Below are positions 2,845 through 12,038 of a DNA stretch of 12,038 bases, in pieces. Source of the stretch: Candidatus Hermodarchaeota archaeon (GTDB lineage: Archaea > Asgardarchaeota > Hermodarchaeia > Hermodarchaeales > Hermodarchaeaceae). The translations under genes were made by a program, and so were the position numbers. Location: NCBI GenBank assembly GCA_016840065.1, contig JAEOTB010000107.1, positions 1 through 12,038 on the forward strand. The letters are read 5' to 3'. How positions within the stretch are numbered: the stretch's first letter is position 1; each line of letters opens with the position of its first letter. Under the pieces are notes generated by a model. It did not search any database, had not been told where the DNA came from, and saw only the letters and a list, made by a program, of their open reading frames with translations.

Positions 2845-4254
2845 ATGGTTGTTATGGTTCAACTTCGGAGGAAAAGATTGTGGTATGTTTTCGCCCTCTT
2901 GCTTCTAGTCCTAACCATACTGAACTGGTTCGGTATTCGAGAAAGAGACAACACTAGTATATTCCCCTTTCCTGGAGCAGAGGGTGTCGTCATCGGTGAT
3001 GTTGATTGGACCTATAATGGTTCTGAGGTCGTAGTCTTTTCTCCCTCCCACGTATTTGCAGTCGGTGGTTTTAGCCAAGTTGTACAACAGGACACCGTCT
3101 ATTACCACACAGATTGGCTAACCGATCCCATTGTTGAGGTTGCCATCGGAGAATTCGACTTGAATGTGACCGATCAAGAAATAATCGTCTTGACCGAGAA
3201 TGGCAATCTACTACTACTGAATAAAGAAAGTGGTGCCTGGACTTTGACCAACCTTGTGAGCCTTCCCTGGTCTACTCCAGTGTGGACAACAAGAGCTCTG
3301 GCTTGTGGTGATTTAGACCCAGTTACTCAAGGCATGGAGATAGCGGTTGTGGGAGAAAAGTATAACTGGACATCCTTGACCCGGACAGACCATGTATTGA
3401 TTGCCAATCGCCCAGATAATGTTTCCTGGCAGGTTGCCAGTGTCTATTCAGAATCCGGTACTCTATTATCTGCGGCGGTAGGGGATTTGAACACTACCCT
3501 GTCTGATGAGCTTGTTTTCGGTGGGAGCCAGGCTTCTGTGAACGTCCTGACTGGCGAGAATAATACCTGGCAGGTAGATGAGCTATTTTCCTGGTCAGGA
3601 GCTGCCATCGAGTCCTTAACCATCGGTGAATTTAGTGCGCTCCACCCAGAAAACGAGATTGGTGTGGCGATCGGAGGACACGTTTTCACTCTCCACTTGG
3701 CTGGTAGTTCGTGGGAACCAAGACAGGTCTGGCACGGAGACTCTATCGCTGGTTTCATGAGCAGCGTCGATGCTGGTGACCTTGATCCCACTCATCCTGG
3801 TGATGAGATGCTCACTACTTGTACGAGTGTGGCTTCTGGACTCAACTTCTACATACTCGAGCCTTTCCCTAGATGGGTAGGGAATCGTCCCTTTTGGTTT
3901 ATTCCTGCGCTCCCCAATGATGTTGCAGTTGGTGACTTTGATGCTCTACATCTAGGAGCCGAAATCGTTGTTGTCACTGATGATGACTTTCAGGTGCTTT
4001 CGAATCCGAACTTCTTTGACCGCGCCCTCCGTGTGGCATCAGGTGTCTTCCTACCTGCAATAATCTTGTTCCCTGCTGCTGCGGTTCTCTTTGCTGTCGC
4101 TGATCGTATCAATCGTGTTGCCACCGAACGGCGCGACCACTATGCAATGGAAATGCGTGCTAAAGGCTACATCCGCTGTCCAAGGTGCAAGCGCTTTGTA
4201 TCAAAAGAGGACATGGAGAAACACCAAAAAGCTCACAGGTCTTTCTTCTACTAG
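2845..4254 (+). CDS. Membrane-anchored FG-GAP/VCBS-like beta-propeller protein with a C-terminal C2H2 zinc finger
   Basis: N-terminal basic plus hydrophobic signal/anchor. Seven G(D/E)hD...Ehhh repeats. Seven N-x-S/T sequons (NTS, NGS, NVT, NWT, NVS, NTT, NNT). A TM helix (VASGVFLPAIILFPAAAVLFAVA) is followed by the tail CPRC-x11-H-x3-H. Confidence 0.85.
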   Translation: MVVMVQLRRKRLWYVFALLLLVLTILNWFGIRERDNTSIFPFPGAEGVVIGDVDWTYNGSEVVVFSPSHVFAVGGFSQVVQQDTVYYHTDWLTDPIVEVAIGEFDLNVTDQEIIVLTENGNLLLLNKESGAWTLTNLVSLPWSTPVWTTRALACGDLDPVTQGMEIAVVGEKYNWTSLTRTDHVLIANRPDNVSWQVASVYSESGTLLSAAVGDLNTTLSDELVFGGSQASVNVLTGENNTWQVDELFSWSGAAIESLTIGEFSALHPENEIGVAIGGHVFTLHLAGSSWEPRQVWHGDSIAGFMSSVDAGDLDPTHPGDEMLTTCTSVASGLNFYILEPFPRWVGNRPFWFIPALPNDVAVGDFDALHLGAEIVVVTDDDFQVLSNPNFFDRALRVASGVFLPAIILFPAAAVLFAVADRINRVATERRDHYAMEMRAKGYIRCPRCKRFVSKEDMEKHQKAHRSFFY

Positions 4255-4323
4255 AAAACTAAGCGACCCGTAGTTCCGCTATACTAAAGGATTAAGCTCG
4301 AACCCTTTGTAGGTGAAACAGGA

Positions 4324-4629
4324 TTGAATATCGAGTTGAAAGGAAAAGACAAGGAAGGAAGAATAGAACGAATCGATCTGGAAGAGGCCTTGGAGAATCC
4401 CTCCATCCTTTTCCTGGAGAAGGAAGAACCAGAGATTGCGACCTGCTACAGAGTCACTGTTGAAAGACTGAAAGTAAGTTTTGTCATCTCAGAGGGATAT
4501 GCAAAGAGGATTGGGGAAGCCATCAAAGCAGTTGACAGTAAGGCAGACGTCGATGGACTAACGCAGCTTTTCCTTCTACTTCAAGCAAAGATGCTTGCCT
4601 CTTTGGGAGCCACTACTTCTAACGAATGA
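4324..4629 (+). CDS. Hypothetical protein
   Basis: 101-aa ORF with a TTG start after an AGGTGA SD and protein-like composition. Its 3' end overlaps the convergent gene by 11 bp. Confidence 0.7.
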   Translation: MNIELKGKDKEGRIERIDLEEALENPSILFLEKEEPEIATCYRVTVERLKVSFVISEGYAKRIGEAIKAVDSKADVDGLTQLFLLLQAKMLASLGATTSNE

Positions 4630-6624: not shown

Positions 6625-7344
6625 TTGCTAGAGAAAGTTCTGAAGAAAATCGCGCACCTTAAACGCTCGACTTGGTTGCCAAAAGTGGAGGAGGGCGATG
6701 GAGGCCTGTCAGACTCCAAGTTTGCTGGGAAGCCCTGGCTCAACAATGACGAAGAGTGGCCCAAATGCCCGATATGTGAGAATCCTATGCAATTCTTCCT
6801 ACAGCTCAACCTCGAAAAACTACCTAAGGAAACAAGAGACCAATTTGGTAAGGGGATCCTACAGATGTTTTACTGCATGAACTGTGAACCAGATTGCTGC
6901 GAAGTACTAGCTAATGCTTGGGAACCCTTTGCCAAATCCGAGCTCATCAGGGTCATCGAGCCAAAAGAGCCAGCAGAAGGAATTGAGGTGCCCAAGTTTG
7001 AACACCCTTTTCCGTCAAAGAGAATCGTGGGATGGGAGGAAAAAGACGACTACCCCCACTACTATGATCTACACAACATGGGTGTGAAGCTAGAAGCTGA
7101 AGAGATTGCACTCTTAGAAGCCGCCCATTATCCACTAGAGGGAGAAAAACTAGCAGGTTACCCCTACTGGGTGCAAAGCCCAGAGTACCCGAATTGCCCA
7201 ATCTGCAAGAAAAGGATGGAATTTGTCTTCCAGATCGACTCTGAGAAGAACTTACCTCATATGTGGGGTGACGTAGGTGTCGGTCACATTACCCAGTGCC
7301 CCGAACATAAGACCCAACTCGCCTTTGGATGGGCTTGTCACTAG
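6625..7344 (+). CDS. YwqG/DUF1963 family (TYPP-domain) protein
   Basis: Internally duplicated motif SKFAGKPW...WPKCPICENPMQFFLQLN / EKLAGYPYWVQ...YPNCPICKKRMEFVFQIDS, plus GILQMFYC and MWGDVGVGHI. The likely start is TTG 6625 after GAGGTG (the ORF track starts it at 6610). Confidence 0.88.
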   Translation: MLEKVLKKIAHLKRSTWLPKVEEGDGGLSDSKFAGKPWLNNDEEWPKCPICENPMQFFLQLNLEKLPKETRDQFGKGILQMFYCMNCEPDCCEVLANAWEPFAKSELIRVIEPKEPAEGIEVPKFEHPFPSKRIVGWEEKDDYPHYYDLHNMGVKLEAEEIALLEAAHYPLEGEKLAGYPYWVQSPEYPNCPICKKRMEFVFQIDSEKNLPHMWGDVGVGHITQCPEHKTQLAFGWACH

Positions 7345-8955: not shown

Positions 8956-9345
8956 TCATGGGAGGTGGGCAATGGCTTCAATTTCTATTGCCACACCCTT
9001 AGGTAGTGCTGCAACCTGCACCGTGGATCGGGCAGGGGGAGCTAGGTCAAAGTAGTTGCCGTACACTTCGTTAACTATGGCAAAGTCAGCCATGTTGGTC
9101 AAGAAGATGGTGGTTTTGACTACATGAGTCAGGTTACAGCCAGCTGCCTTGAGGATTGCCTTGATGTTCTCCATACATTGACGGGCTTGGTCAGCGATAG
9201 AACCTCTAACGAACTCTCCAGCCACAGGGTCAAAGGGAACCTGACCCGCAACAAAGAGGAGGTCACCCACACGAATAGCCTGACTATAAGGACCCACAGG
9301 CCGAGGGGCATCCTTGGTAAAGACCGCTTCTTTCTCAGATGGCAT
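8956..9345 (-). CDS. ridA: RidA (YjgF/YER057c/UK114) reactive intermediate/imine deaminase
   Basis: Motifs APRPVGPYSQA, LFVAGQVPFDP, VVKTTIFL-NMADF, VNEVYGNYF and PARSTVQVAALPKG-AIEIEAIA, including the catalytic Arg. Confidence 0.95.
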   Translation of the reverse strand: MPSEKEAVFTKDAPRPVGPYSQAIRVGDLLFVAGQVPFDPVAGEFVRGSIADQARQCMENIKAILKAAGCNLTHVVKTTIFLTNMADFAIVNEVYGNYFDLAPPARSTVQVAALPKGVAIEIEAIAHLP

Positions 9346-9496
9346 TACAAATCATCTCTAAACACGATGGGGGAAGTGGAGAAGGTTTCAGCACAGGGAG
9401 CCTATTAGGCTTTTCCTAAAGACATACAAATGAACCAAGACAGTACAAAGCCCCATCAACACCTGTCAACCCCAAAGGTTTCATCGCCGCTTCTCC

Positions 9497-9556
9497 AAAA
9501 AGGTTTAAAGGATAGATTGTGGCGTTTTTCGTACACCCCTCACGGCTCTGGCCGTG
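9497..9556 (+). promoter_or_regulatory. Ferredoxin promoter (BRE/TATA) and 5' leader hairpin
   Basis: aaaaaggTTTAAAg with the TATA box at 9504-9509. A perfect hairpin CACGGC-tctg-GCCGTG lies at 9541-9556. Confidence 0.5.
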
Positions 9557-9591
9557 CCGGTGAATCCGTAAACAAAGGAATGTTAAAAGAA

Positions 9592-9768
9592 ATGCCCCCG
9601 AAAGTAGATTTAGAGAAATGCAACGGCTGCGGTTCATGCGCTGACGTTTGCCCTTCTGAATGCTTCGTAATGGAAGAAGAAAAGTCCAAGGTTGTCAATC
9701 CCGACGACTGTGTTGACTGCGAAAGCTGCGTCGAGAACTGTCCTGAAGGTGCTATCGTCCTGGAGTAG
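9592..9768 (+). CDS. 2x[4Fe-4S] dicluster ferredoxin
   Basis: MPPKVDLEK-CNGCGSCADVCP...CVDCESCVENCP-EGAI contains two CxxCxxCxxxCP motifs. The true start is probably ATG 9592, and the 9430 extension runs over the promoter. Confidence 0.95.
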   Translation: MPPKVDLEKCNGCGSCADVCPSECFVMEEEKSKVVNPDDCVDCESCVENCPEGAIVLE

Positions 9769-9854: not shown

Positions 9855-9896
9855 AAAACTAACAATCCTAAGAGTAATCGAGGCGATTTTAACCCT

Positions 9897-10450
9897 AAAG
9901 GCTTTTAAGGGGTTCAGCAACTGCGCAGCTGCGCACCAAAAAACCTACCAAAGTACTCGAAACCCAATTTTTCTTCTAATATTTCCGACAAACATCGTCA
10001 AAAAATGCACCACAATGCCCCCAAAACCACCGTGAACCACGCAATTGCGCAGTTTCCCATCCTCAAACCCCGCAGCTAAAACCCCCAGGTAGTATATAGT
10101 GGAAGCACAGACTCCATGGGAAAGCACCAAGGACGTGGGAACCGGGAACCCGGAACCCCCGACCCCAATCGGGGAACCCTCCCTTCCTGTCCTCCCAAAT
10201 CCCTCCCTCCCGTTGTCCGAACCTCCCTTTTTTTGGGGGCACCGGATCCCGGCTCCTGTCCTCTGGTGGGATCCCAGGGTCGTCCTCCCTTCATTTGCGG
10301 GGAGAAGGGGGATGACCAGACACAGGTAGAAAAGCGAGGCCCCTACCTCCTTTTTGGTAGGGGAATTCCCTATCACGAAATCACAATTGGAACGCTTTTC
10401 CACTTCCTATAAGGAAACCTTTTAAAAGCAGAAAGCATATCCTATATATA
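9897..10450 (+). promoter_or_regulatory. Tandem TATA-like promoters upstream of the BHB stem
   Basis: aaaggcTTTTAAgg (9903), gtagTATATAg (10093) and gaaaccTTTTAAAAg (10420). All lie in a long region with no credible CDS. Confidence 0.5.
9922..10051. repeat. Pair of related palindromes (tgCGCA-N2-TGCGCA)
   Basis: TGCGCAGCTGCGCA (9922-9935, perfect 14-bp palindrome) and CACGCAATTGCGCA (10038-10051). With flanks they also form a 13/15 inverted repeat around an A/C-rich spacer. Confidence 0.7.
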
Positions 10451-10487
10451 GAACCGGGAAAATCCCGAGGCGAATGAAACAAAACAA
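10130..10487 (+). ncRNA. Structured non-coding leader resembling a pre-rRNA 5' external transcribed spacer
   Basis: Nested helices at 10130-34/10189-93, 10142-46/10149-53, 10157-62/10169-74, 10278-88/10307-17 (with G-U pairs), 10329-36/10393-400 enclosing 10340-47/10356-63, and 10455-59/10463-67. Confidence 0.55.
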
Positions 10488-10630
10488 CACCCCAATACTA
10501 TAGTAGCCACTGGCGAATGGATAGAGTCATCCTCTCCCTGTGTCTTTCATTCCCCTCTCCCCCTCTCCTCCTTTATGTCCTCGTTCTAAGGACTGCTCTA
10601 TCCCGCTTTTGGTGGCGTCGTGTTGGGGTG
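10488..10630 (+). ncRNA. Long stem with a canonical bulge-helix-bulge motif: a 16S-type rRNA processing stem with no rRNA inside
   Basis: Helices at 10488-98/10620-30 (11 bp) and 10506-11/10611-16 (6 bp). The central 4 bp GGCG/CGCU (10512-15/10604-07) carry 3-nt bulges AAU (10516-18) and UUU (10608-10), each 3' of the central helix. The inner helix is 9 bp (10519-27/10595-603). G-U pairs fix the + strand. The loop contains ATTCC|CCT at 10549-10556. Confidence 0.75.
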
Positions 10631-10759
10631 ACCATTTCTTTTCTTAGTGACAGTGAGTTTACACTTTCCTGTGTGAATGCATTCTCCACCCCGGGGCAGA
10701 GTCAGACGAGACCGATCGGGGTCGTGACCGACCACTTACCTACCCGTATCACCTTTACA

Positions 10760-10827
10760 TGGAATGTTACTGCACGTATTTGCTGAGAGGGTCTAAGTGG
10801 AATGTTAATGCACGTGTAAGCTGAGAG
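10760..10827. repeat. Imperfect 30-bp direct repeat (2 copies, period 38)
   Basis: TGGAATGTTACTGCACGTATTTGCTGAGAG (10760-10789) versus TGGAATGTTAATGCACGTGTAAGCTGAGAG (10798-10827), 26/30 identical. Confidence 0.85.
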
Positions 10828-11894: not shown

Positions 11895-11950
11895 TCACCA
11901 AGTTCAACCAGGACAGGCAAAATGGTAAGTCCTCCAACACATGTGTCATT

Positions 11951-12037
11951 TCAATTCCGTGCTCTGAGGATCTCAAAGCAGTCCTTCCAGGGGAATTCTC
12001 CGTTGATGGCAGCTTCCAGGAAGCGGTCATTCATGTC
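11951..12037 (-). CDS. Partial CDS (C-terminus) entering from the right edge
   Basis: The minus-strand frame reads ...DMNDRFLEAAINGEFPWKDCFEILRARN-stop, which is protein-like and convergent on the 11349 gene. Confidence 0.55.
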   Translation of the reverse strand, partial: DMNDRFLEAAINGEFPWKDCFEILRARN

Positions 12038-12038
12038 C

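Follow-up and report, generated by a model that had tools for sequence, protein, structure and literature searches.

Archaeal circular RNAs formed by the tRNA-splicing enzymes are already known as introns, as rRNA intermediates, and as one permuted SRP RNA. In Thermoproteus tenax, the ends of a circular SRP RNA are processed at a tRNA-splicing-endonuclease site and ligated, giving a circle that is stable and functional (Plagens et al. 2015, PMC4731332). In Haloferax volcanii, a bulge-helix-bulge (BHB) intron in the 5'-UTR of HVO_1309 gives a 46-nt circle, and other BHB-flanked circles and rRNA circles have also been reported (Schwarz et al. 2020, PMC7714728). Circular pre-16S and pre-23S intermediates are described in two further sources (PMC12918454; bioRxiv 10.64898/2026.03.23.713588), the latter of which places the BHB motif in rRNA processing stems. 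The circular non-coding RNAs of Sulfolobus are mostly C/D box RNAs, RNase P RNA, tRNA introns, and rRNA intermediates, and the paper on them uses neither "BHB" nor "bulge-helix-bulge" (Danan et al. 2012, PMC3326292). The EndA endonuclease of Asgard archaea has been reported to be an (alpha-beta)2 enzyme with an L1 loop, a kind that shows broad specificity for relaxed motifs (PMC5829648).

Here we describe a locus in a window of 12,038 nucleotides, which is the whole of contig C112 in a Hermodarchaeia MAG (G000; 84% complete, 131 contigs). We consider it quite likely that the locus is a stand-alone, promoter-driven non-coding gene, the main conserved product of which is a covalently closed ring of 92 nt. 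The T. tenax case and the present one are alike in that the transcript of a stand-alone non-coding gene is cut at such a site and yields a stable ligated circle. The T. tenax ring, however, is a permuted universal RNA with a fold restored by circularisation, whereas the present ring is uncatalogued, largely unstructured, C/U-rich, and lineage-specific. As with HVO_1309, a BHB motif outside tRNA and rRNA gives a small circular RNA; that circle is an mRNA-leader intron, the host mRNA being presumably the point, whereas here there is no coding or known-RNA exon and the circle is the conserved part. The locus shares with the circular pre-rRNAs a long leader-trailer stem with a BHB motif, its cleavage, and the circularisation of the enclosed RNA, but it encloses no rRNA and has no sequence relation to the 16S flanks of its genus. 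The Sulfolobus set is likewise made up of archaeal circular non-coding RNAs, some of which have no assigned function. C/D box circles are not known to need a BHB motif for their closure. The mechanism proposed below matches BHB-dependent circularisation in these cases, but the ring differs in that it is probably not a known RNA in permuted form and is not the intron of a recognisable host. In the searchable literature we found no description of genes that solely make a novel ring; the present ring gene is one of a small family, is conserved across a whole Asgard class, and is supported directly by RNA from the environment.

Structure of the proposed ring gene

The minimum-free-energy (MFE) fold of positions 10480-10640 reached -48 kcal/mol, compared with -31.5 +/- 3.6 kcal/mol for shuffled sequences (n = 200; z = -4.5), and none of the 200 shuffled sequences folded as well. 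The 11-bp helix, the 6-bp helix, the canonical BHB motif, and the 9-bp helix that the first-pass annotation had read from the letters were all reproduced by this fold at the same positions. The elements are as follows:

10488-10498 with 10620-10630, plus strand: outer helix of 11 bp including one G-U pair (MFE fold)
10506-10511 with 10611-10616, plus strand: second outer helix of 6 bp (MFE fold)
10512-10515 with 10604-10607, plus strand: central BHB helix GGCG/CGCU of 4 bp (fold; 100% paired in 15 distinct sequences)
10516-10518, plus strand: 5' bulge AAU, with a predicted cut at 10517/10518 that is compatible with the RNA joint
10608-10610, plus strand: 3' bulge UUU, with a predicted cut at 10609/10610 (fold and RNA joint)
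10519-10527 with 10595-10603, plus strand: inner helix GGAUAGAGU/GCUCUAUCC of 9 bp (fold and covariation)
10577-10593, plus strand: small hairpin GUCCU-CGUUCUA-AGGAC beside the inner helix (fold)
10535-10582, plus strand: invariant C/U-rich single-stranded core of the ring, 48 nt identical in 15 distinct sequences from two genera, with diverging flanking stems
10518-10609, plus strand: RNA that is excised and closed into a circle, 92 nt here, 91 nt in the organism behind the RNA contigs, and predicted at 87-90 nt in the sister genus

The hBHBh' geometry is present, with 3-nt bulges on opposite strands, 4 bp between them, and each bulge 3' of the central helix; helices flank the motif on both sides (6 and 11 bp outside, 9 bp inside). 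A bulge lying 3' of the central helix on each strand is the polarity and geometry of the BHB motifs of tRNA introns. In the relative G003, the outer helix is retained despite its altered sequence (CACUUCAGCAC with GUGCUGAGGUG).

The transcribed region is delimited by the following elements:

10414-10427, plus strand: promoter, a BRE-like purine run and the TATA box TTTTAAAA (TATA at 10420-10427), aligning with the conserved AAAGCGTTTTAAAT that precedes the conserved sister-genus leader by about 30 nt
10448-10517, plus strand: 5' exon (leader), with a leader motif conserved in both genera
10610-10646, plus strand: 3' exon, comprising the 3' strands of both outer helices and a T-rich stop (10635-10645), as read from the sequence

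The TATA box TTTTAAAA aligns with the conserved TTTTAAAT in relatives. In both genera the box precedes the conserved leader by about 30 nt, a spacing that would place the transcription start near 10448. Of the tandem promoters suggested earlier, the TATA box at 10420-10427 is borne out by its conservation, whereas the second TATA-like run (10443-10450) sits at this presumed start. The leader contains a hairpin, CGGG-AAAAU-CCCG, at about 10455-10467, and its CGAGG (10466-10470) is able to pair with CCUCG (10579-10583) within the ring. The motif CGGGAnnnCCCGAGGYGRAU is common to the leaders of both genera.

A C-rich stretch further upstream (10095-10370), which had been considered as a structured leader, gave a fold z-score of -0.25 and is unsupported in that role. 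The stretch is non-coding, with a TATA-like run at 10089-10097 as well as a run of T7 at 10228-10235. A segment of about 60 nt (10300-10363) is seen again in contig C397 of the relative G001, and G003 matches from 10300 on. It may be another small transcript.

Distribution and conservation

The class Hermodarchaeia is represented in the genome set used by 19 species in two genera. Of the other 18 Hermodarchaeia genomes, 13 carry the element of about 100 nt without interruption, as do 6 metagenome contigs. Exact matches to the core came solely from MAGs that bear the label Hermodarchaeota, Candidatus Hermodarchaeum, or Promethearchaeota. A search with a covariance model built on the ring region gave strong matches only within Hermodarchaeia (13/18). 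The element was not found with this model in the 132 non-Hermodarchaeia Asgard genomes sampled, a search run with the stricter filters of Infernal, which weak relatives could escape.

The central and inner helices together comprise 13 pairs, and all 195 of the 195 cells in the 15 distinct sequences are paired (100%), compared with 43-57% in control structures slid by 1-3 columns. Three of the nine inner-helix pairs are changed on both sides across the relatives: the helix is GGAUAGAGU/GCUCUAUCC here, and GGAUGGGGU/GCCCCAUCC and GGAAUCGGGGU/GCCCCGUUCC in relatives. This covariation shows that the BHB motif is kept by selection.

Genes for RidA and a 2x[4Fe-4S] ferredoxin adjoin the ring gene in G003, G008, and G018. 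In both genera the ridA/ferredoxin pair (8956-9768 in the window; L020, L023, and L027 in relatives) remains the neighbour of the ring gene, although the orientation of the ring gene with respect to the pair is inverted in the sister genus.

The sister-genus form and a second, predicted type of ring gene

The sister genus keeps the 4-bp GGCG/CGCU helix, the inner helix, and a 3-nt 5' bulge (ACA, AAA, AUA, or AAU). Its leader forms no outer helix (1-4 bp at most), and a terminator hairpin (GGGUGNNGC...GCNNCACCC followed by U7) takes the place of the trailer, mostly 3 nt after CGCU. The motif would thus at best be a relaxed one (HBh'-like), or the hairpin may substitute for the outer helix; ring formation in this genus is a prediction from the modelled structure. 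The sister-genus leader is about 190 nt long and has its own 110-nt hairpin domain. Its AACGAGG is able to pair with CCUCGUU of the ring, and in G007 the corresponding segments are AAUGAGG and CCUCAUU, a single compensatory event.

At least three further ring-type genes, designated type B, occur in the genome of G000 and share the architecture and the motif CAUUCCCUCUCCCC with the gene described above (type A). They first surfaced as weaker full-length matches of the covariance model (loci L079 and L080 cover type B):

Contig C11 of G000, 9926-10027 (gene region 9886-10050), plus strand: type B copy, covariance-model match
Contig C52 of G000, 3991-4093 (gene region 3985-4110), plus strand: type B copy, covariance-model match
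Contig C38 of G000, near 7064 (gene region 6980-7139), minus strand: third type B copy

Type B is also present in four relatives (G003, G008, G016, and G010). Its genes have their own TATA box, and their outer helices vary among the copies yet pair in every copy. The motif is BHB-like, with GGCG/AGCG opposite CGCU/CGCC, a 5' bulge of AAA/AUA, a looser 3' site, and an inner helix of about 11 bp, and the C-rich loop is almost invariant (...CCAUUCCCUCUCCCCUCCAAUUGUGUCCUUUUUUGGAC...). Types A and B share CAUUCCCUCUCCCCUCC and a GUCC...GGAC hairpin. From these features, the type B loci are predicted to be ring-type genes. No neighbour genes are shared among the four ring loci.

Ring-type RNA contigs in metatranscriptomes

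The core was found in eight RNA-labelled runs. One DNA run (X1) and three RNA runs (X4 from one study, X6 and X8 from a second study) were examined for the joint. Each of X4, X6, and X8 contained one contig of 121 nt that is at least 99% similar to the window and reads 10575-10612, then ATAGAGT, then 10529-10604. Because the first and last 30 nt of the contig are identical, it represents a closed 91-nt circle (91 plus the k-1 overlap). The joint in these contigs is CGCUUUU-GGAUAGAGU. Cuts at 10517/10518 and 10609/10610, between the second and third nucleotides of each bulge, predict CGCUUU followed by UGGAUAGAGU, which is the same string. Since UGG is common to both cut sites, the joint is ambiguous within 3 nt; as a caveat, such a microhomology is also where template switching by reverse transcriptase occurs. 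No back-joint was seen in the DNA run X1, and the joint sequence of 16 nt occurs nowhere in the genome or in any of the loci compared.

The RNA comes from a relative at least 99% alike, with a 1-nt difference, rather than from this exact strain, and the ring is 91 instead of 92 nt there because C10528 is missing. The RNA runs examined contain only the form of the ring found in the first genus. The contigs stop short of the flanks, and the ring is thus the form that assembles; these are assembled contigs and not raw reads, so that strand, abundance, and ligated exons are not readable from them. A stand-alone BHB transcript releasing a circle of about 92 nt (10518-10609) had been the third option of the first-pass annotation, which proposed looking in RNA data for a back-splice junction from 10609 to 10518. 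Exactly this back-joint is seen in the contigs of X4, X6, and X8, and the cut sites proved right as well.

The genome of G000 encodes two EndA paralogs (frames of 197 and 205 aa) and one RtcB. In the mechanism that we propose, the primary transcript would be about 200 nt long, and pairing of its leader and trailer would form the canonical hBHBh' motif. The tRNA-splicing endonuclease would cut both bulges and RtcB would join the ends, both enzymes being assigned on the basis of gene presence. This would release the ring along with what is presumably a hairpin of ligated leader and trailer. The expected shape of the ring is a dumbbell, in which a 9-bp stem carries at one side a 7-nt loop with the ligation joint and at the other a 67-nt loop that is mostly single-stranded and C/U-rich and includes the small hairpin.

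Alternative explanations

The shape of the locus had led the first-pass annotation to call it an "empty" 16S rRNA processing stem, with a 16S gene removed in silico or by the assembler, or with a vestigial rRNA locus, as its other options. A loss of about 1.5 kb of 16S between 10553 and 10554, through the assembler, the submitter, or a pipeline, could appeal to the fact that neither a 16S nor a 23S was found across the MAG (84% complete, 131 contigs). The window, however, is the whole contig as stored, 15 assemblies contain the same short insert, and the junction sequence is identical in these independent assemblies and in the RNA contigs. Since the element is uninterrupted in the 13 of 18 genomes and the 6 metagenome contigs, a deletion by assembly or pipeline is excluded, and we give this explanation virtually no weight. 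Contigs of the best-matching DNA run tile 10397-10720, with no single record having 31 letters on both sides of 10553/10554. The loose ends listed for that run are the sister-genus variant, a downstream 3'-half copy, or, at 10397, variant upstream sequence, and none of those listed reads GGTTGATCC, as an end continuing into 16S would. A genuine relic, that is, the stem of a former unlinked 16S lost by deletion, would account for the shape of a processing stem with a BHB motif, for ATTCC and CCUCCU in the loop, and for the fact that the 16S genes of this family are unlinked from 23S. The complete 16S of the same genus (G001:C21), however, starts with ACACTGGTTGATCC (ACACUGG) and ends with GGATCACCTCCT, and its flanks fold into a different long leader-trailer stem of their own. 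The best blastn match between those flanks and the element had E = 0.23 over 15 nt, which is no homology. SSU rRNA searches of the window (gathering threshold and E <= 10) found none, and the inner helix encloses 67 nt. The letters ATTCC (10549-10553) followed by CCT are indeed present, but they are part of the 48-nt C/U-rich block and have no rRNA meaning. A relic would also be expected to decay, yet 48 nt are invariant in two genera and the stem covaries; moreover, paralogous ring genes exist. We therefore regard a vestigial rRNA locus as very improbable. A BHB stem without rRNA inside is not necessarily an assembly fault, a point that may serve as a warning in annotation.

Equally improbable is a small-protein gene, either the ORF at 10517-10786 (89 aa) or a shorter in-frame version. 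Its product is predicted to be hydrophobic, and an ATG, as read off the alignment, is in frame with the invariant block in both genera; this ATG, however, would be split by the predicted cut. Indels of 1, 2, and 3 nt between relatives and genera lie past the block and leave C-termini that are unrelated among relatives, the 48 nt have no substitution even at third codon positions and hence no synonymous variation, and a Pfam search of the locus gave no match; on these three grounds coding is excluded. Among known RNAs, no tRNA was found in the window, and no Rfam family at the gathering thresholds; at E <= 10 the sole Rfam match was a Yersinia sRNA (E = 0.59) on the opposite strand, which was rejected as spurious. 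For a permuted known RNA (SRP, tRNA, or Asgard 5S), the two halves were scanned separately with Rfam and gave no match even at E <= 10, and a C/U-rich, poorly paired ring resembles no universal RNA. An intron of a tRNA or mRNA is not indicated, the exons being a leader of about 70 nt and a trailer of about 37 nt that pair only with each other. The remaining alternative, which we consider unlikely but which carries more weight than the deletion, relic, and coding readings, is that the functional molecule is a linear sRNA of about 200-290 nt or the ligated leader-trailer, with the ring as a by-product or turnover form. The conserved leader motif speaks for it, as do three features of the sister genus: the conserved 5' hairpin domain of about 110 nt, the lack of the outer helix, and a normal terminator hairpin at the end. 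On the other hand, conservation is highest in precisely the piece that is excised, 15 of 15 sequences retain the 4-bp helix and the positions of both 3-nt bulges, which have no obvious role in a linear sRNA, and in three RNA runs the closed ring without flanks is the sole assembled form. The ring as main product is thus preferred, and the linear or spliced-exon RNA, its leader being conserved, may also matter.

The 16S genes of the relatives showed further features. That of the same genus (L011; G001:C21:5951-7493, minus strand) has pairing arms spanning tens of nucleotides with interrupted helices, and it stands alone, with no tRNA-like or 23S-like sequence seen by eye in the 400 nt downstream. 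Its trailer ends in GGGGUGGACGACCAC and a T-run, much as the ring gene and the downstream copies described below do (GGGGUGACCA/C and a T-run); this ending may be a genus-typical terminator context. Other 16S genes are heavily interrupted: L012 (G012:C71:619-4212) spans 3.6 kb for 1478 model positions, and L016/L017 (G002:C142) consist of several separated pieces. Large introns are likely in the 16S rRNAs of G012 and G002.

Candidate function

The working part of the ring is most likely the single-stranded C/U-rich loop, to judge from the 48 nt invariant in two genera. Within a ring that resists nucleases, the loop would be available to a protein that binds C/U or to purine-rich RNA, for example Shine-Dalgarno (SD)-like tracts. 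Because the tests for a base-pairing partner were negative, we tentatively favour a platform that binds a protein or else short-seed pairing to purine-rich (SD-like) tracts; the two taken together are possible rather than probable.

Several partners were examined. A role as rRNA guide or chaperone was rejected, duplex energies of the loop with 16S (G001) and 23S (G003) being no better than those of shuffled loops; the longest Watson-Crick/G-U runs against the 16S and 23S of three relatives were likewise at or below the shuffle means. An antisense target in the 84%-complete genome of G000 was sought with blastn-short and a mismatch motif scan, which gave only matches of 12-14 nt, at the level of chance; two of them on contig C90 that resemble sites of SD plus AUG are within expectation. 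In viral contigs, the conserved 3' block was not found, and a degenerate C-rich 18-mer had 7 matches, none in a ring context.

More speculatively, Hermodarchaeia could possess a multigene family of purpose-built circular RNAs (at least four genes here), in which the invariant loop would act in trans as a regulator, serving as a long-lived sponge or platform to which a poly(C/U)-binding protein or SD-like purine tracts would bind, with the 3' end of type A used in addition as the docking site of an integron-like cassette array. If true, the archaea most closely related to eukaryotes would have a prokaryotic counterpart of the regulatory circRNAs of eukaryotes. The role of dedicated archaeal circRNAs can be tested on this concrete molecule of 92 nt, which has an invariant face of 48 nt.

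A cassette array downstream of the ring gene

The window ends as follows:

11912-12038, strand not assigned: contig end, with the same sequence as nt 1-127 of contig C88 (exact 127-nt overlap), from which the cassette array continues

Contigs C112 and C88 overlap by exactly 127 nt and are thus neighbours, which places five copies of the 3' half directly downstream of the ring gene. A single 5' half of the gene is present in the whole genome. An early idea, that the five 3'-half copies would pair in trans with this single 5' half, is not needed. The arrangement resembles the outcome of cassettes being inserted one after another at the ring gene's 3' end, in an att-like or integron-like manner. 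A search for an integrase near the array, covering the window and the first 10 kb or so of C88, found none.

The five 3'-half copies are on the same strand (C88:230-293, 1246-1330, 2013-2080, 2788-2852, and 4300-4348; locus L061). Each has the conserved block UUCUAAGGACUGCUCUAUCCCGCUU, a variable stretch, and then GGUGUUGGGGUGRCCAC and a T-run. By eye, the variable stretch pairs with sequence just upstream of the block in copies 1-4; the partner in copy 5 was not found. The copies separate units of 0.75-1.5 kb, which carry small uncharacterised genes, membrane-like or RING-like, in either orientation. G003 has one such unit and a copy after its ring gene.
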